A stretch of 64,000 nt of DNA, taken from assembly GCF_988243305.1 (NCBI RefSeq), contig NZ_OZ547136.1; one strand, 5' to 3'. Under the pieces are notes generated by a model. That model made no database searches. It was not told the origin of the DNA and saw only the letters and a program-made list of their open reading frames with translations. Made by a program: the position numbers and the translations under genes. Within the stretch, counting starts at the first letter, position 1; the number at the start of each line of letters is the position of its first letter. This document shows positions 2,732-10,585 of this stretch, piece by piece.

Positions 2732-3403
2732 ATGGGTATTAAGGGAATGTGGAAAGACCTTCGCACTTCACCGGTGGACACGCTGGTAAGATGGCAAGAA
2801 CAACGTTTTTTGTGGTTGTTAATGGCCATTGCGATGGGCGCGTTAATTATCCTGGCGCACTCTTTCTTCCAGATCTATCTCTACATGGCACCCTGTGAGC
2901 AATGTGTATACATTCGCTACGCCATGTTTGTGATGGTTATTGGAGGATTGGTTGCAGCGATCAACCCAAAGAACATCATCCTAAAGCTAATTGGCTGCGT
3001 GATGGCATTTTACGGCAGCATTTTGGGACTGAAGTTTTCGCTCAAACTGAACGATATCCACCATGCAGTACATAATCCGGATCCCGATTCACTGTTTGGC
3101 GTACAGGGTTGCTCTACCGATCCAACTTTTCCCTTTAACCTGCCGCTGGCACAGTGGGCACCAAATTGGTTCAAGCCTACCGGGGATTGCGGCTATGACG
3201 CCCCAATCGTTCCTGATGGCGTCACACTGAGCAGCATGCAACAGTGGTTTGTGGAAATGTATCAGCAATCTGAAGGCTGGTATCTGCTACCACCATGGCA
3301 TTTTATGAATATGGCTCAGGCTTGTATGCTGGCTTTTGGTATGTGTCTGGTGCTGCTGGTCATTATGAGTGGCGCATGGGCGCTTAAAATCATCAGAGGC
3401 TAA
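2732..3403 (+). CDS. dsbI: Inner-membrane disulfide oxidoreductase, DsbB paralogue (223 aa)
   Basis: Multi-pass membrane protein with paired cysteines (CEQC), third gene of the assT operon. Confidence 0.8.
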
Positions 3404-3448
3404 CTCAGCAACACCCAAAGCCAGTCATTCTGGCTTCGGGTTCTTTTA

Positions 3449-4237
3449 TTAACCTATCTGCACCGACAGCATACTTAAACTGCCCATCTCTATGCCATCA
3501 ACCGGAACAGTCACCGGCTCCTGACCATCCCACGCACCTAATACATACAACAGTGGCAGAAAGTGTTCCGGTGTTGGGTTCGATAACGCCCCTCCTTCAT
3601 GGTCGAGGTAATTCACCAGAGGATGCTGCTCTACCGGCCCTTGCCACGTCAGATTCGCTTTCACATACTCATTAAACGACATCGCCCACGGATACGGTGA
3701 ACTATCACCGTGCCACTTCACTGTGCGCAGGTTATGTACCACGTTACCGCTGGCGACCAACATTATTCCTTCATCTCGCAGCGCTGCCAGTTTACGCCCC
3801 ATCTCAAGGTGCCAGGCGGCGGGTTTGGTGCTATCAATACTTAACTGCACCATCGGGATATCCGCTTGCGGATACATCTTAATCAGCACGCCCCACGAGC
3901 CGTGGTCAAAGCCCCAGGCTTCTTTATCCAGCGTCACCGGGACCGGCGCTAACAGCTCAACCAGATGCTGTGCCAGCGCAGGCGAACCCGGAGCAGGATA
4001 ATGCGTGTCGTACAGCGCCTGCGGGAAGCCACCAAAGTCATGAATCGTGGGCGGCGTCTCCATCGCGGTCACTCCTGTTCCACGGGTAAACCAGTGAGCC
4101 GAAACCACCACAATCGCTTGCGGGCGTGGCAATGTCATCCCCAACTTCTGCCAGCTGCGGGTATACAAATTATCTTCCAGCACGTTCATCGGACTACCGT
4201 GACCTAAAAACAATGCTGGCATACGTGTTGAAGACAT
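3449..4237 (-). CDS. ygiD: Class III extradiol dioxygenase-like protein (DOPA-dioxygenase family), 262 aa
   Basis: Translation MSSTRMPALFLGHGSPMN...; ORF-track start at 4264 is further upstream, ATG at 4237 chosen to match the known 262-aa length. Confidence 0.8.
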   Translation of the reverse strand: MSSTRMPALFLGHGSPMNVLEDNLYTRSWQKLGMTLPRPQAIVVVSAHWFTRGTGVTAMETPPTIHDFGGFPQALYDTHYPAPGSPALAQHLVELLAPVPVTLDKEAWGFDHGSWGVLIKMYPQADIPMVQLSIDSTKPAAWHLEMGRKLAALRDEGIMLVASGNVVHNLRTVKWHGDSSPYPWAMSFNEYVKANLTWQGPVEQHPLVNYLDHEGGALSNPTPEHFLPLLYVLGAWDGQEPVTVPVDGIEMGSLSMLSVQIG

Positions 4238-4379
4238 GATGATATCCTTAACTAAAGGTGTCATTTTGATATCCTCACAATACGCTTGTTCGGCGGAGTA
4301 AGAACCCGGATAACAATGATGATGATCATCAGTTATTTTGACGATCTGCCTGAAGGTGAAGATTTATAAGGAGTTGTCG

Positions 4380-5153
4380 ATGTCAGTACCTCTCATTCTG
4401 ACCATACTGGCGGGGGCAGCCACGTTTATTGGCGCGTTTCTCGGCGTTCTCGGGCAAAAACCCTCGAACCGCTTACTGGCGTTTTCGCTAGGATTTGCGG
4501 CGGGGATCATGTTGCTCATCTCATTAATGGAAATGCTTCCTGCCGCACTAGCAGCCGAAGGAATGTCGCCTGTGTTGGGTTATGGAATGTTTATCTTCGG
4601 TCTGCTTGGCTATTTTGGCCTGGACCGCATGTTGCCACATGCGCATCCGCAGGATTTAATGCAAAAATCGGTGCAGCCGTTGCCAAAATCGATCAAGCGC
4701 ACAGCCATTCTGCTCACTCTCGGCATCAGTCTGCATAACTTCCCGGAAGGGATTGCCACCTTTGTCACTGCGAGCAGCAACCTGGAGCTGGGCTTTGGCA
4801 TCGCACTGGCCGTTGCGTTACACAATATTCCTGAAGGTCTGGCGGTTGCAGGCCCGGTTTACGCGGCAACGGGGTCTAAACGCACCGCGATTCTTTGGGC
4901 GGGGATTTCTGGACTGGCAGAAATTCTTGGTGGTGTGCTGGCGTGGTTAATCCTCGGTAGCATGATTTCCCCGGTGGTCATGGCGGCAATCATGGCGGCG
5001 GTTGCAGGAATTATGGTGGCGCTCTCGGTTGATGAATTAATGCCGCTCGCCAAAGAGATTGACCCTAATAATAACCCCAGCTATGGCGTACTATGTGGAA
5101 TGTCAGTGATGGGATTCAGTTTAGTGCTGCTACAAACGGCGGGAATTGGTTAA
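4380..5153 (+). CDS. zupT: Zinc transporter, ZIP family (257 aa)
   Basis: ATG at 4380 preceded by AAGGAG; ORF-track start at 4338 is a TTG; polytopic membrane protein with HNxPEG motifs. Confidence 0.9.
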
Positions 5154-5642: not shown

Positions 5643-6296
5643 TCAGCTGGCTTTACGCTCATGTGCCTGACGATAAGCCACCAGGTCTTCAATAGTCACG
5701 AGCGCCATATTGTGTTTATTGGCAAACTCAATGCACTCTGGTGCACGCGCCATCGTGCCATCGTCATTAGTCAGCTCACACAGCACACCAGCCGGTTTAA
5801 AGCCTGCCAGCGTCATCAGATCAATAGTCGCTTCAGTATGGCCGCCACGCGTCAGTACACCACCAGCCTGAGCGCGAAGTGGGAAAACGTGGCCCGGGCG
5901 ATTCAGATCAGAAGGTTTTGCGTCATCGGCAATCGCTGCGCGAACGGTCATAATACGGTCAGCGGCAGAAACACCGGTAGTCACACCTTCAGCCGCTTCA
6001 ATGGTCACGGTAAAACCGGTGCCATAGGCGCTGGTGTTATTTTCTACCATCATTGGCAGATCAAGTTGTTTACGGCGATCTTCAGTAATGCACAGGCAAA
6101 CAATACCGCTACCGTGGCGAATGGTCAGCGCCATCTGCTCAACGGTCATGGTTTCTGCCGGGAAGATCATATCGCCTTCGTTTTCACGGTCTTCATCATC
6201 AAGCACCATTACACCGCGTCCTTCACGCAGCGCAGCCAGTGCATTTTCAACACGTTCGAAAGGCGTACCAAAAGAGGAAAGTAGCGTCTGATTCAT
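5643..6296 (-). CDS. ribB: 3,4-dihydroxy-2-butanone 4-phosphate synthase (217 aa)
   Basis: Translation matches RibB full length; upstream FMN riboswitch. Confidence 0.95.
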
Positions 6297-6540: not shown

Positions 6541-6669
6541 GAATAAGCGGATTCACTATAACGCTAATGATTAGCGGCAGCAACGCATAGCTTCACATAA
6601 TTCTGGTTTATGACTTACCCTTATCGCACTACAATGGCACTCAACACCTATCAGTACAGGGAAACTACA

Positions 6670-6969
6670 ATGATTGACCCGAAAAAAATTGAGCAAATCG
6701 CTCGCCAGGTTCACGAATCAATGCCTAAAGGAATCAGGGAGTTCGGGGAAGATGTGGAGAAAAAAATCCGCCAAACCCTACAAGCGCAGCTGACGCGTCT
6801 CGATCTGGTAAGCCGCGAAGAATTCGACGTTCAGACGCAAGTCCTGTTACGGACTCGTGAAAAACTGGCGTTACTGGAGCAGCGCATCAGTGAACTGGAA
6901 GCGCGCAATAATTCGGTAGCAGATCTTCAATCTCCTCCGGCTATCCCGCCTATTGATAAAGCAGAATAA
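6670..6969 (+). CDS. ubiK: Ubiquinone biosynthesis accessory factor UbiK (YqiC), coiled-coil protein (99 aa)
   Basis: Translation [16 protein letters not shown]... with leucine-zipper-like C-terminus; ORF-track start at 6610 is upstream of the known start. Confidence 0.8.
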
Positions 6970-6982
6970 AGCAACACAAAAA

Positions 6983-6999
6983 CGGGCCAGACGGCCCGT
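6983..6999. terminator. Short GC hairpin (CGGGCC-AGAC-GGCCCG) between convergent ubiK and glgS
   Basis: Inverted repeat read in sequence. Confidence 0.5.
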
Positions 7000-7003
7000 A
7001 ATA

Positions 7004-7204
7004 TCAGTGTTCTAATTCAAGTTCTCTGGTTTGCATCATCTGTTGGCAATACCAGGCATAACGTGCGCAAAACCAGGTTCTATGTTCTTCATCCATGTTA
7101 CCAGTAACGGCCAGAATATCGACCGGGCGACCTTCTGCGTGCATTCTGGCAAAACTACGCGCCAGGAAATCGAAATTATTTAAAGAATTAAGACTATGAT
7201 CCAT
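7004..7204 (-). CDS. glgS: Glycogen synthesis / surface-composition regulator GlgS (66 aa)
   Basis: Translation [36 protein letters not shown]... Confidence 0.9.
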
Positions 7205-7473
7205 AAGCACATCCTCCGGTTATCGCATACCTTTTAAGGCCATATGCTTTTTCTGATTTCAGTATTCCCCAATCAGTGTAGTGCCTTTAAACATAACGTG
7301 CGTAAATATATTGTCCCCGATCACACTTTTTAGTGAAAAAATAAAAAACCATATTAAAAGACTATCTCTTCCAGAACTTATCTAACATGTGTTATTATTA
7401 ACAAAGATAAATGTAAGCAAGGAAACTATCCCAAAGTAAATATTGCGTCACTAAATGGACATTGGAGTGACAT

Positions 7474-8103
7474 ATGATTTTATTCGCCGACTATAACACC
7501 CCTTATCTTTTCGCTATTTCCTTTGTACTGTTGATCGGCCTTTTAGAAATTTTTGCGCTTATCTGCGGTCACATGATCTCCGGTGCACTTGATGCACATC
7601 TTGACCATTATGATTCCATAACCACAGGTCATATTAGCCAGGCACTTCATTATCTCAATATCGGAAGATTGCCAGCTCTCGTCGTTCTTTGCTTACTGGC
7701 TGGTTTTTTTGGTCTTATTGGCATCCTGTTGCAGCATGCCTGCCTCATGGTCTGGCAATCACCACTTTCGAACCTGTTCGTGGTTCCTGTCAGTTTACTG
7801 TTTACGATTATTGCGGTGCATTATACCGGTAAAATAGTTGCGCCCTGGATTCCACGCGACCATAGTTCAGCTATTACAGAAGAAGAATATATTGGTAGCA
7901 TGGCATTAATTACCGGTCATCAAGCCACTTCAGGTAATCCCTGCGAAGGAAAACTCACCGATCAATTTGGCCAAATACATTATTTACTACTGGAGCCTGA
8001 AGAAGGAAAAATTTTCACTAAAGGAGACAAAGTGTTAATTATTTGCCGACTTTCTGCAACGCGATATTTGGCGGAAAACAATCCCTGGCCCCAAATATTG
8101 TAA
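7474..8103 (+). CDS. yqiJ: NfeD-like inner membrane protein (209 aa)
   Basis: ATG with GGAG RBS; hydrophobic N-terminal half plus soluble C-terminal domain; upstream partner of SPFH protein YqiK. Confidence 0.85.
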
Positions 8104-8129
8104 TTTATTAATCAAAAGGAAATTTAATA

Positions 8130-9791
8130 ATGGATGATATTGTTAATTCTGTGCCCTCCTGGATGTTTACTGCGATTATTGCCGTATGCATTCTGTTTAT
8201 TATTGGAATTATTTTCGCCAGGCTCTATCGTCGCGCTTCGGCAGAGCAAGCTTTTGTTCGTACTGGTTTAGGTGGGCAAAAAGTGGTAATGAGCGGTGGC
8301 GCAATCGTGATGCCGATCTTTCATGAAATAATCCCCATCAATATGAATACTCTGAAGCTGGAAGTCAGCCGCTCAACCATTGATAGCCTGATTACGAAAG
8401 ATCGTATGCGCGTCGATGTAGTAGTCGCTTTCTTTGTGCGGGTAAAACCGTCAGTGGAAGGTATTGCCACCGCCGCCCAGACGCTGGGGCAACGCACCCT
8501 GTCGCCTGAAGACTTACGTATGTTGGTTGAAGATAAATTTGTCGATGCCCTCCGTGCAACAGCTGCACAAATGACCATGCATGAGTTACAGGATACCCGC
8601 GAGAACTTCGTGCAGGGCGTACAAAATACCGTAGCTGAAGATCTGTCGAAAAATGGCCTGGAACTGGAAAGCGTTTCACTTACCAACTTTAACCAGACGT
8701 CGAAAGAACATTTCAATCCTAACAACGCCTTTGACGCCGAAGGTTTAACCAAGCTGACGCAGGAGACGGAGCGCCGTCGTCGCGAACGTAACGAAGTTGA
8801 ACAGGATGTAGAAGTTGCGGTGCGTGAGAAAAACCGTGATGCGCTTTCGCGGAAGCTAGAGATTGAACAACAAGAAGCGTTTATGACGCTTGAGCAGGAG
8901 CAGCAGGTTAAAACCCGTACCGCTGAGCAGAATGCGAAAATTGCGGCTTTTGAGGCCGAGCGTCGTCGGGAAGCAGAGCAGACGCGAATTCTGGCTGAAC
9001 GACAGATTCAGGAAACGGAAATCGACCGCGAACAGGCCGTCCGTTCCAGAAAAGTTGAAGCTGAACGTGAAGTTCGCATTAAAGAGATCGAACAGCAGCA
9101 GGTCACCGAAATCGCTAACCAGACGAAATCGATCGCTATTGCCGCCAAATCGGAACAACAGTCCCAGGCAGAAGCGCGTGCTAACCTTGCACTTGCAGAA
9201 GCGGTAAGCGCCCAGCAAAACGTAGAAACAACTCGCCAGACCGCAGAAGCCGATCGTGCTAAACAAGTTGCCCTAATCGCTGCCGCGCAGGATGCAGAAA
9301 CCAAAGCGGTTGAACTGACCGTGCGGGCGAAAGCAGAGAAAGAAGCCGCAGAGATGCAGGCGGCGGCAATCGTTGAGTTAGCCGAAGCTACGCGTAAAAA
9401 GGGTTTGGCGGAAGCAGAAGCGCAACGTGCGCTGAACGACGCTATCAACGTACTTTCTGATGAACAAACCAGCCTTAAATTCAAACTGGCGCTATTACAG
9501 TCGTTACCTGCAGTAATAGAGAAATCCGTTGAGCCGATGAAGTCTATCGACGGCATCAAGATTATTCAGGTCGATGGATTAAACCGAGGTGGTGCTGCGG
9601 GGGATGCGGCATCAGGCAGCGTTAGTGGCGGAAACCTGGCAGAACAGGCATTATCAGCCGCACTCTCTTACCGCACACAGGCACCACTGATTGACTCCTT
9701 GCTCAATGAAATTGGCGTTTCAGGCGGCTCACTGGCTGCATTGACTTCACCCTTAACCTCAACAACTCCCGTCGCAGAAAACGTAGAATAA
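8130..9791 (+). CDS. yqiK: SPFH/band-7 (flotillin-like) membrane protein with long Ala/Glu/Gln-rich coiled coil (553 aa)
   Basis: N-terminal TM segment, SPFH-like region, then extended AEAERR-type heptad-rich segment. Confidence 0.85.
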   Translation: MDDIVNSVPSWMFTAIIAVCILFIIGIIFARLYRRASAEQAFVRTGLGGQKVVMSGGAIVMPIFHEIIPINMNTLKLEVSRSTIDSLITKDRMRVDVVVAFFVRVKPSVEGIATAAQTLGQRTLSPEDLRMLVEDKFVDALRATAAQMTMHELQDTRENFVQGVQNTVAEDLSKNGLELESVSLTNFNQTSKEHFNPNNAFDAEGLTKLTQETERRRRERNEVEQDVEVAVREKNRDALSRKLEIEQQEAFMTLEQEQQVKTRTAEQNAKIAAFEAERRREAEQTRILAERQIQETEIDREQAVRSRKVEAEREVRIKEIEQQQVTEIANQTKSIAIAAKSEQQSQAEARANLALAEAVSAQQNVETTRQTAEADRAKQVALIAAAQDAETKAVELTVRAKAEKEAAEMQAAAIVELAEATRKKGLAEAEAQRALNDAINVLSDEQTSLKFKLALLQSLPAVIEKSVEPMKSIDGIKIIQVDGLNRGGAAGDAASGSVSGGNLAEQALSAALSYRTQAPLIDSLLNEIGVSGGSLAALTSPLTSTTPVAENVE

Positions 9792-9989
9792 ATTTTCAAC
9801 TATGAACATCCCTGGCCCAAAAAGCCGGGGATTCTTTATATCTGCGTTCCGATAAAAAGTGCAAATGATCGGGCTGTTGCAGCATTTTGCGTGACCGCTC
9901 GGGGAAGGCAAAACTGCCTCTGGGTAAGCATTGCGCGGGGTCCGGCGTTCATCAACAATCGGGAAGTCAGCAAGGGGCTGAAACGGGAA

Positions 9990-10135
9990 AGCCCCTCCCG
10001 AAGAAGGGGCCTTGTATAAGGAAAGGGTTATGATGAAGCTCATCATCATACTGATTGTGTTGTTACTGATAAGTTTCCACGCTTACTAACAGCCAATCAG
10101 AGGGGGGAGAAATCCTCCCTCACCCTTGTTCCTTT
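9990..10135 (-). ncRNA. sibD: Sib antisense sRNA (antitoxin) overlapping the first ibs ORF; boundaries approximate
   Basis: Established knowledge that Sib RNAs of ~110-150 nt are encoded fully antisense to ibs; ends not determinable from sequence alone. Confidence 0.45.
10030..10089 (+). CDS. ibsD: Ibs-family type I toxin, 19-aa hydrophobic peptide (MMKLIIILIVLLLISFHAY)
   Basis: ORF read directly; fits the Ibs peptide family; location between yqiK and hldE as for ibsD/ibsE in K-12; D versus E assignment is by order only. Confidence 0.75.
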   Translation: MMKLIIILIVLLLISFHAY

Positions 10136-10365
10136 ACTTTAGGTTGAAAAAAAATCAGCGTCAAGAAGGTTTCATTAACACATATTCCTGGCCCAAAAAG
10201 CCGGGGATTTTTTATATCTGCATTCCGCAAAAAACTGCAAATGCTCAGGTCGTTGCAGCCTTTTGCGTGACCGCTCGGGGAAGGGAAAACTGCCTCTGGG
10301 AAAGCGTTGCGCGAGGTCCGGCGCTCATCAACAATCGGGGAGTCAGCAGGGGGCTGAAACGGGAA

Positions 10366-10510
10366 AGCCCCTCCCGAGGAAGGGGCCTTGTATAAGGAAA
10401 GGGTTATGATGAAGTTCGTCATCATACTGATTGTGTTGTTACTAGTAAGTTTCCAGGCTTATTAACAACCAATTCAGAGGGGGGAGAAATCCTCCCTTAC
10501 CCTTGTTCCT
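10366..10510 (-). ncRNA. sibE: Sib antisense sRNA (antitoxin) overlapping the second ibs ORF; boundaries approximate
   Basis: As for the first copy. Confidence 0.45.
10406..10465 (+). CDS. ibsE: Ibs-family type I toxin, 19-aa hydrophobic peptide (MMKFVIILIVLLLVSFQAY)
   Basis: Second copy in the tandem repeat, read directly. Confidence 0.75.
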   Translation: MMKFVIILIVLLLVSFQAY

Positions 10511-10585
10511 TTACTCTAGGTTGAAAAAACAACAGCGTCAATAGGCCCACCTGCTACGAAGCGAGATCTGTGAACCGCTTTCCGG

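Follow-up and report, generated by a model that had tools for sequence, protein, structure and literature searches.

The yqiJ–yqiK gene pair

The subject of this study is the gene pair yqiJ–yqiK, which occupies positions 7474–9791 of a 64,000-nucleotide stretch of Escherichia coli DNA (contig NZ_OZ547136.1 of NCBI RefSeq assembly GCF_988243305.1), referred to throughout as the window. An earlier note on this DNA had given the two genes these names, placed them at this position and described the pair as already known, all of which is borne out: both open reading frames (ORFs) coincide with the RefSeq yqiJ and yqiK coding sequences of Z1323HEC0462, the strain closest to the window (99.9 % identity), and of K-12 MG1655, the RefSeq products being an ‘OB-fold-containing protein’ and a ‘flotillin family protein’, respectively, and published accounts of the pair agree (PMC2636767, PMC10434171). 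It has been discussed since 2009 as an SPFH2/NfeD2 (flotillin) operon. We find that the YqiK protein is of the flotillin type and that its very long helix follows an 11-residue (hendecad) pattern with no heptads, and we propose that this helix probably builds the wall of a membrane-anchored cage for which YqiJ would be the partner protein.

7474–8103, plus strand: yqiJ coding sequence (ORF, RefSeq annotation), 209 residues; inner-membrane protein with a C-terminal OB fold, operon partner of YqiK
8104–8129, plus strand: gap of 26 nucleotides between yqiJ and yqiK, with the yqiK ribosome-binding site AAGGAA at 8116–8121
8130–9791, plus strand: yqiK coding sequence (ORF, RefSeq annotation), 553 residues; flotillin-family SPFH protein

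YqiK is a flotillin-type SPFH protein

The predicted amino acid sequence of YqiK matches the Pfam families Band_7 (PF01145; E 1.9e-18, 67.6 bits against a cut-off of 23.6, residues 39–192) and Flot (PF15975; E 5.3e-40, residues 406–530), and the assignment to SPFH or flotillin-like proteins made in the earlier note is upheld by these matches and by the top rank of flotillin chains in the searches described below. A monomer model was built with AlphaFold2 from an alignment of 63 diverse homologues (mean predicted local distance difference test score, pLDDT, 79.8), and the protein can be divided as follows.

8157–8225, plus strand: residues 10–32, N-terminal transmembrane helix (AlphaFold2)
8226–8696, plus strand: residues 33–189, SPFH (Band 7) domain (Pfam; pLDDT 96–98), aligning to flotillin-1 residues 10–152
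8727–9452, plus strand: residues 200–441, long helix of 242 residues (AlphaFold2) with a hendecad pattern and no heptads, the predicted cage-wall helix (CC1)
9459–9542, plus strand: residues 444–471, second helix (AlphaFold2), the predicted cap (CC2), aligning to the pre-strand helix of flotillin-1
9549–9575, plus strand: residues 474–482, DGIKIIQVD, predicted strand of a roof beta-barrel (profile alignment with ‘ANKITLVSSG’ of flotillin-1)
9576–9635, plus strand: residues 483–502, Gly/Ser/Ala-rich linker, hypervariable, with pLDDT below 50 at residues 479–500
9636–9758, plus strand: residues 503–543, C-terminal domain of three short helices (AlphaFold2), inside the Pfam Flot match

The residues R31, R34 and R35 follow the transmembrane helix, which by the positive-inside rule suggests that the rest of the protein is cytoplasmic, an orientation that has also been stated in the literature (PMC10434171). 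The linker is the site of pronounced divergence, with 23 mismatches per 100 nucleotides relative to K-12 at 9574–9673.

With YqiK alone as the query, phmmer returned no matches in the PDB. A profile of the YqiK family placed the flotillin-1 and flotillin-2 chains of 9BQ2 and 9L3G at the top of its PDB matches (E 1e-13), the alignment spanning the SPFH domain and the helix–cap–strand region and bringing YqiK residues 465–483 onto the segment of flotillin-1 that lies past the cap helix. These chains also came out on top when the monomer model was searched with Foldseek (E 2e-15 over about 500 aligned columns); next in rank were prohibitin, stomatin, HflK/C, erlin, QmcA–YbbJ (8Z5G) and the major vault protein, and there were SPFH-domain matches to 1WIN, 3BK6 and 4FVJ. 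In flotillin the cap helix is followed by a beta-strand (PMC11260169), and residues 474–482 of YqiK, which are coil in the monomer model, would correspond to that strand; with this segment so assigned, the order of elements is that of flotillin, namely SPFH domain, very long helix, cap helix, beta-strand and C-terminal helices. We conclude that YqiK is a flotillin-type SPFH protein and not a stomatin-like one. Its score against the NCBIfam FloT equivalog NF058507 is 89.1 bits, below the cut-off of 700, and it is therefore a related flotillin and not the orthologue of Bacillus subtilis FloT. The protein had previously been placed in the prokaryotic flotillin group SPFH2, in which ‘giant’ members with expanded coiled coils were noted (Hinderhofer 2009, PMC2636767).

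The long helix of YqiK

Residues 196–450 of YqiK consist of 19 % Ala, 17 % Glu, 11 % Gln and 10 % Arg (A, E, Q, R and K together making up 62 %), a run of 219 residues (206–424) contains neither Pro nor Gly, and the Shannon entropy of the long segment is 3.5 bits as against 3.98 in the SPFH domain. In the AlphaFold2 model residues 200–441 form a single uninterrupted helix. The Ala/Glu/Gln-rich segment of about 250 residues that had been noticed at approximately residues 200–450 is thus confirmed. A DNA tandem repeat was ruled out as its origin, as neither Tandem Repeats Finder (TRF) nor a repeat finder detected one inside yqiK.

The segment had further been described as much longer than that of typical stomatin-like proteins, and whether this holds depends on the comparison made. 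It is correct in relation to the E. coli paralogues QmcA (305 residues), HflC (334) and HflK (419), the longest Pro/Gly-free runs of which are 32–50 residues, and to the published lengths of SPFH-cage wall helices, which range from 44 to 189 residues (PMC11260169, PMC13000311). Even the flotillin wall helix of 186–189 residues, which has itself been called ‘significantly longer than other SPFH family members’ (PMC11260169, PMC13000311), is exceeded, the YqiK helix surpassing human flotillin CC1 (189 residues) by about 53 residues. It does not hold within the protein’s own family. When 1.84 billion cluster representatives were searched exhaustively with HMMER, 605 relatives were found at E ≤ 1e-30, of which the full-length ones mostly have 520–620 residues and some 650–900; 78 YqiK orthologues from distinct species have 549–628 residues, and the family median of the anchor-to-anchor helix length defined below is the E. 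coli value. The helix is unusual only in relation to proteins of the stomatin, HflK/C and prohibitin types and is normal among the bacterial flotillins (SPFH2).

Helix length and hydrophobicity follow an 11-residue pattern

Helix length was measured between two near-invariant anchors, G205 and N440 in E. coli numbering, which lie 235 residues apart in E. coli. This distance equalled 235 plus a multiple of 11 in 57 of the 61 sequences that could be counted in the 63-sequence alignment, in 148/156 sequences of a hidden Markov model (HMM) alignment when a single domain had to cover both anchors, and in 177/202 when anchors were joined across domains. In the 63-sequence alignment the lengths on this lattice were 202 (one sequence), 213 (two), 224 (19), 235 (24), 246 (eight) and 257 (three), and in the set of 202 the length classes span 180 to 411. 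Pairwise alignments with the E. coli helix gave the same picture, gap runs of 11 (n=127) and 22 residues (n=46) being far more numerous than those of 10 (n=11) or 12 (n=2); the runs of 11 and 22 fall at many sites within two zones, roughly residues 280–330 and 405–435.

The same period is present in the sequence itself. The mean hydrophobicity spectrum of 195 family members has peaks at 10.93, 5.39, 2.75 and 2.22 residues, which correspond to 11/1.01, 11/2.04, 11/4.00 and 11/4.96 and each of which rises above the highest shuffled mean; at 3.67 and 3.5 residues this family mean has no peak. When residues are sorted by hendecad phase, the large hydrophobics I, V and L concentrate at phases 11 (43 %), 2 (35 %) and 5 (30 %), Ala is enriched at phases 3, 4, 8 and 10 (25–31 %) and charged residues at phases 1, 6, 7 and 9. 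At 3.67 residues per turn, phases 11-4-8 and 2-6-10 would form two stripes roughly 195 degrees apart, and we read the missing 3.67 harmonic as the mark of two such opposite contact stripes. Two opposite stripes are what would be expected if each wall helix is in contact with a neighbour on either side of it in a one-layer wall, with its charged faces turned inward and outward, an arrangement known from flotillin (PMC11260169). In the literature library that could be searched we found no paper linking a hendecad or 11-residue period with flotillin or SPFH proteins; this quantization of helix length, a small regularity, has apparently not been described.

The helix had been labelled a coiled coil in the earlier note, as it is in databases and papers, and that label did not survive a direct test. 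Fourier power of hydrophobicity was calculated for residues 200–441, and for 30 sliding windows of 35 residues, and compared with shuffled sequences. No heptad signal was found in this segment: power at period 3.5 was 0.02–0.06, power in the 3.40–3.75 band lay under the shuffle mean (z = −1.3) and none of the 30 windows was significant. The same script gave z = 14.7 and 17/30 significant windows for tropomyosin, the positive control, and across the YqiK family the mean power was 0.48 at frequency 2/7 vs 3.41 at 4/11. Flotillin, too, is without heptad repeats, its wall being a right-handed single-layer barrel of side-by-side helices (Fu & MacKinnon 2024, PMC11260169) in which contacts are spread over the full helix length (PMC11260169, PMC13000311). 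The helix of YqiK has an 11-residue pattern in place of heptads, and the term ‘coiled coil’ is misleading for this family.

YqiJ is NfeD-like by fold and context

YqiJ matches the Pfam families YqiJ_N (PF21001; 58.4 bits against a cut-off of 23, E 1e-15, residues 8–115) and YqiJ_OB (PF07290; 54.0 bits against a cut-off of 25.4, E 1.7e-14), and both match in all 42 aligned YqiJ homologues. Its AlphaFold2 model has a mean pLDDT of 90.8 and comprises two parts.

7489–7848, plus strand: residues 6–125, helical membrane domain with long hydrophobic helices at 6–31, 68–94 and 100–125 and two short helices at 35–60 (AlphaFold2)
7900–8079, plus strand: residues 143–202, OB-fold beta-barrel of five strands (AlphaFold2, Foldseek)

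When the OB domain was searched with Foldseek, ranks 2 and 4 were annotated NfeD-type C-terminal domains: 3WWV, from PH1510, the stomatin-operon partner of Pyrococcus horikoshii (TM-score on target 0.78, root mean square deviation 2.3 Å), and 2K14, from the B. subtilis NfeD protein YuaF. Rank 1 was 2K5H (MTH693), which we take to be an NfeD-type domain as well. The E-values of these matches are weak (2e-3 to 1e-2, with TM-scores on target of 0.55–0.78), and the remaining matches are generic OB folds. By sequence the relationship could not be recovered: Pfam NfeD (PF01957) was found in 0/42 members of the YqiJ family at E ≤ 1, the PDB gave no sequence match to YqiJ by phmmer alone and none at E ≤ 10 with the family profile, and an hhalign comparison of YqiJ with E. 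coli YbbJ was not significant (probability 0.2 %, as printed). The ‘NfeD-like’ label that YqiJ had received is accordingly sound as regards fold, topology and gene neighbourhood and fails as regards membership of the sequence family, the view that nuclear magnetic resonance (NMR) work on YuaF had reached for both YuaF and YqiJ (PMC2636767).

Conservation of the gene pair

The region is present in 5,424/5,426 complete E. coli genomes (megablast), with at least 80 % coverage in 5,403. A search for related loci, made with an alignment of 12 closer sequences, gave 80 orthologous loci, two of which end at a contig edge; in all 78 with upstream DNA a yqiJ-like ORF lies upstream of the yqiK orthologue on the same strand, directly adjoining it in nearly every case (in one locus the gap is 1,842 nucleotides). 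These orthologous loci show that the pair has been kept across Proteobacteria. Its surroundings are alike in Z1323HEC0462 and K-12, with ribB, a flavin mononucleotide (FMN) riboswitch, ubiK and glgS upstream and SibD/SibE-ibs and hldE downstream, and no terminator-like site was found within the 26-nucleotide gap between yqiJ and yqiK. We regard yqiJ–yqiK as a conserved two-gene operon encoding a bacterial flotillin system.

The coding sequences are under purifying selection. Comparison of yqiK with its K-12 counterpart gave 80 synonymous and nine non-synonymous codon differences, with a ratio of non-synonymous to synonymous substitution rates (dN/dS) of 0.039 overall and 0.017 in the helix, so that the ‘low-complexity’ helix is in fact strongly constrained; for yqiJ the ratio was 0.073.

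Relationship to known systems

The human flotillins (9BQ2, 9L3G; PMC11260169, PMC13000311) provide the best profile and fold match to YqiK, with the same order of elements, a shared Pfam Flot domain and a wall helix that is likewise rich in Ala and Glu and without heptads. They differ in that YqiK has a true N-terminal transmembrane helix, whereas flotillin uses lipidation and hydrophobic insertion; in that YqiK is the product of a single gene and would be expected to form a homo-oligomer, whereas flotillin is a hetero-oligomer of 22+22 subunits; in the length of the wall helix (a predicted 242 residues vs 186–189), with sequence identity at 18–21 %; and in that YqiK has an NfeD-like partner, which eukaryotes lack.

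The B. subtilis yuaF–floT (yuaG) pair, assigned to NfeD2 and SPFH2 (PMC2636767), follows the same operon logic and order, a small three-transmembrane OB-fold protein being followed by a protein composed of a transmembrane helix, Band_7, a long helix and Flot. The NMR structure of YuaF (2K14) is one of the best Foldseek matches to the YqiJ OB domain, and YqiJ and YuaF have been grouped together (PMC2636767, PMC11237479). YqiK is nevertheless not an orthologue of FloT (89 bits vs 700), and the roles reported for FloT in biofilm formation, sporulation and competence in B. subtilis have no demonstrated counterpart in E. coli.

QmcA–YbbJ (8Z5G), from E. coli itself, has the same cytoplasmic orientation, and its operon, too, pairs an SPFH protein with a small OB-fold partner in the membrane. 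According to papers that cite it, 8Z5G was solved as a cage of 26 heterodimers, and it could serve as the best template for the binding of YqiJ to YqiK. There are also clear differences: gene order is reversed, qmcA coming first with a 4-nucleotide overlap with ybbJ whereas yqiJ precedes yqiK; QmcA is only 305 residues long and has a short wall helix; YbbJ is an NfeD protein of the Pfam type, to which YqiJ has no significant sequence similarity; and YqiJ has an extra helical insert at residues 35–60. The architecture of the pair had been called the ‘classic’ NfeD plus band-7 operon, which is apt in so far as the operon also encodes a membrane OB-fold partner, but not as regards the order of the genes. 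HflK/HflC–FtsH (7VHQ, 7WI3, 9CZ2) shares the SPFH cage architecture (Foldseek E about 1e-9), but HflK/C is a periplasm-facing hetero-oligomer that encloses FtsH, has no NfeD partner and has much shorter wall helices.

A model for the YqiK–YqiJ assembly

Our working hypothesis is that YqiK forms a flotillin cage whose barrel wall is the hendecad-patterned helix and whose partner is YqiJ, a reading to which we would give a probability of roughly three in four. YqiK would be anchored in the inner membrane by its one N-terminal transmembrane helix, with the remainder in the cytoplasm, and by homology with the cages of human flotillin, HflK/C and QmcA–YbbJ many copies side by side would close into a dome on the cytoplasmic side of that membrane. 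In this dome the SPFH domains would make up the rim, the 242-residue helix (residues 200–441) a single-layer right-handed helical barrel wall, and the helix at residues 444–471, the strand at 474–482 and the C-terminal helices a closed roof. Within the wall, stripes 11-4-8 and 2-6-10 would contact the left and right neighbours and the charged residues would point inward and outward, an arrangement for which the hendecad pattern and its two stripes speak. A helix that changes in length almost only by units of 11 residues, each amounting to three turns, would keep the rotational register between rim and roof. YqiJ, with its three membrane helices and cytoplasmic OB fold, would be an obligatory partner, probably lying in or at the enclosed membrane patch and aiding assembly in the way that other SPFH proteins are helped by NfeD proteins. 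Such a cage would isolate a microdomain of the inner membrane, and a YqiJ-assisted flotillin cage isolating an inner-membrane patch is the best-supported mechanism for this gene pair.

A number of observations weigh against this model. The cage is derived by homology at just 18–21 % identity to flotillin, and the pLDDT of the YqiK model is only 50–57 at residues 320–360, where the helix may bend or break. About 12 % of the family in the 202-member set lies off the 11-residue lattice, the off-lattice lengths differing mostly by +3, +4 or +7 residues, that is, by one or two helical turns. Rare alleles from E. coli and Salmonella carry in-frame insertions or deletions of 2, 4, 5, 9, 13 or 16 residues in the helix, so that either strict register is not absolutely required or these alleles are impaired. 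A recognizable yqiJ can be missing beside more distant flotillin-family homologues. Finally, YqiK is barely detectable at native level, and its deletion has given no phenotype or weak ones (PMC10434171, PMC6788730, PMC2636767).

When proposing a cage of this type, it is important that other functions of such a helix are considered. One is a classical heptad coiled coil, whose hydrophobic seam would join YqiK into dimers, trimers or rods. A single long helix with 219 residues free of Pro and Gly and made largely of Ala, Glu, Gln, Arg and Lys is what earns high scores from coiled-coil predictors, and the domain is called a ‘coiled coil’ in three papers (PMC2636767, PMC11237479, PMC13000311); but the power of 0.02–0.06 at period 3.5, the z of −1.3 with 0/30 windows set against 14.7 for tropomyosin, the occurrence of length changes in multiples of 11 and not of 7, and the non-intertwined, heptad-free barrel of the closest solved relatives all speak against it, and we consider it very improbable. 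Hardly better founded, although very slightly more plausible in our estimation, is the view that the helix is a charged single alpha-helix of the ER/K type, or a low-complexity spacer, which would set the distance between the C-terminal domain and the membrane and have no role in assembly. Residues 210–330 are mainly Glu, Arg, Lys and Gln, the monomer is predicted to contain an isolated straight helix, an amphipathic signal at 3.6 residues is absent, and a ruler could likewise favour discrete lengths. This view would, however, leave unexplained the conserved 11-residue phase with its two opposite stripes (I/V/L at 11, 2 and 5; Ala at 3, 4, 8 and 10), the dN/dS of 0.017 in the helix and the homology of the helix–cap–strand unit to flotillin, where the helix is a wall.

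The alternative to which we attach the least weight of all is that in E. coli the operon is a poorly expressed, decaying remnant in which neither the long helix nor its variants now serve any function. Fusions of YqiK to green fluorescent protein (YqiK-GFP) and to a 3xFLAG tag (YqiK-3xFLAG) were undetectable or marginal at native level, single and quadruple SPFH mutants grow normally, there are many rare in-frame indel alleles, and one Salmonella isolate has a yqiJ frameshift with no phenotype. A decaying remnant would not be expected in 5,424/5,426 genomes, 5,403 of them with at least 80 % coverage, nor with 80 synonymous to nine non-synonymous differences from K-12 (dN/dS 0.039); most full-coverage hits in a 60-genome sample are exactly 1,662 nucleotides long with no in-frame indel evident, and the pair is kept across Proteobacteria and is also present on about 349 plasmids, mostly conjugative. 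We therefore retain the YqiJ-assisted cage as our working hypothesis.

A more specific version of the cage model is put forward tentatively, and we think it somewhat doubtful: that the wall helix is strictly 11-residue with two opposite stripes, that cage size evolves only by whole hendecads, and that the family forms a graded series of cages in which that of E. coli has about 53 subunits. The last figure follows from a published regression for SPFH cages, in which the number of subunits is 0.1782 × CC1 length + 10.22 (PMC12624060), and would be an extrapolation outside the fitted range of that line, on which one hendecad is equivalent to 1.96 subunits. If this is correct, YqiK, with a CC1 of about 242 residues, would form a cage of roughly 3 MDa, above the largest solved membrane SPFH cage (flotillin, 44 subunits), and the ‘giant’ relatives of 650–900 residues would form far larger ones. 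The hendecad pattern would then be a sequence-level rule for the register of wall helices, with about 53 subunits as a testable prediction of cage size, and adding or removing 11 residues might offer a rational route to cages of engineered size.

Variation and reported phenotypes

In the protein database there are about 55 distinct in-frame indel alleles of YqiK, of 527–566 residues, from E. coli, Shigella, Salmonella and Escherichia albertii. The long helix, at residues 201–437 (8730–9440), takes nearly all of the indels, the SPFH and C-terminal domains being almost free of them. The indels include (EQ)n at residue 254, AEKEA in one to three copies at residue 401, and the gain or loss of the 13-residue segment AERRREAEQTRIL. 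Whereas the differences fixed between species follow multiples of 11, most of these indels do not, and some may be assembly errors. Helix-length polymorphism was considered as a major feature of E. coli and rejected: of the full-coverage yqiK hits in a sample of 60 evenly spaced complete genomes, most are exactly 1,662 nucleotides long, the exceptions being differences of 1–5 nucleotides, a stop at query position 1,652 or a single partial hit. The indel alleles are taken to be rare because no in-frame indel is evident from the aligned spans in this sample.

The yqiK allele of the window is itself rare, at least 99 % identity being found in 24/5,424 genomes and 90–95 % in 4,693. It is mosaic with respect to K-12, synonymous divergence (dS) being 0.26 in yqiK and 0.057 in yqiJ and the mismatches in yqiK clustering at 8574–8974 and 9474–9674, probably through ordinary recombination with a divergent lineage. 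The 6 % nucleotide divergence of yqiK from K-12 was also examined as a possible anomaly and is partly background, as hldE, glnE and glgS differ by 3–4 %.

Paralogous yqiJ–yqiK pairs occur on about 349 plasmids in PLSDB, mostly from E. coli and Shigella, and 342/394 matching records are conjugative. In pECOED (NC_011754.1, IncK2/Z) the pair lies at 2309–2929 and 2956–4650, with the same 26-nucleotide gap, between a gene of the NusG family and the pil (thin pilus) genes; at the protein level its YqiK is 82 % identical to that of the window over 541 residues without a gap and its YqiJ 54 % identical. Among chromosomal orthologues, those of Paraburkholderia and Burkholderia are 75–76 % identical to E. 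coli YqiK and those of Acinetobacter 47–50 %. This closeness of betaproteobacterial proteins over those of the gammaproteobacterium Acinetobacter suggests horizontal transfer of the operon, a process that has been proposed for SPFH genes (Hinderhofer 2009, PMC2636767).

As regards phenotype, neither the yqiK deletion nor a quadruple SPFH mutant was altered in growth, biofilm formation or stress response (PMC10434171), and the same report mentions, citing other work, an effect of yqiK on swimming and ampicillin tolerance. Over-expression of yqiK alters morphology (PMC2636767), and in other bacteria flotillin–YqiJ/YuaF pairs are associated with envelope-stress operons of the PspA type (PMC11237479).

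Flanking features

The sites flanking the two genes are as follows.

7004–7210, minus strand: glgS, divergent from yqiJ
7211–7473, no strand: intergenic region between glgS and yqiJ, AT-rich (GC about 0.36–0.38, by composition)
7464–7467, plus strand: GGAG, Shine–Dalgarno-like ribosome-binding site of yqiJ, before its ATG
9808–9832, plus strand: terminator-like hairpin, GC-rich and with a T-rich tail behind it, 17 nucleotides past the yqiK stop (consensus match only)

The region 7211–7473 is presumably the site of both the glgS and the yqiJ promoter; a promoter scan gave no sigma-70 consensus match upstream of yqiJ on the plus strand. Further upstream, glgS directly follows ubiK (6610–6969, with 6970–7003 between them), as it does in Z1323HEC0462, and the known FMN riboswitch (RF00050, 6400–6548, minus strand, 120.9 bits) lies upstream of ribB (5643–6296, minus strand). 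In K-12 the yqiGHI fimbrial genes are immediately upstream of glgS (yqiH and yqiI were seen), which points to strain-specific presence or absence of a fimbrial operon.

Downstream, between yqiK and hldE, are two tandem copies of a Sib antitoxin RNA on the minus strand (10015–10164 and 10391–10541; Rfam RF00113, 149.6 and 142.3 bits), and opposite them, on the plus strand at about 10030–10089 and 10406–10465, 19-codon ibs ORFs that encode type I toxins, the arrangement being that of SibD/ibsD and SibE/ibsE in K-12. Minus-strand ORFs of 96 and 101 residues at the Sib copies are artefacts of the repeat. Further ORFs, of 105–183 residues, lie inside yqiK at 8321–8752, 8856–9266 and 9008–9559 on the minus strand and at 8890–9207 on the plus strand; these are most likely by-products of the GCN- and GAR-rich codons of the helix and not genes.

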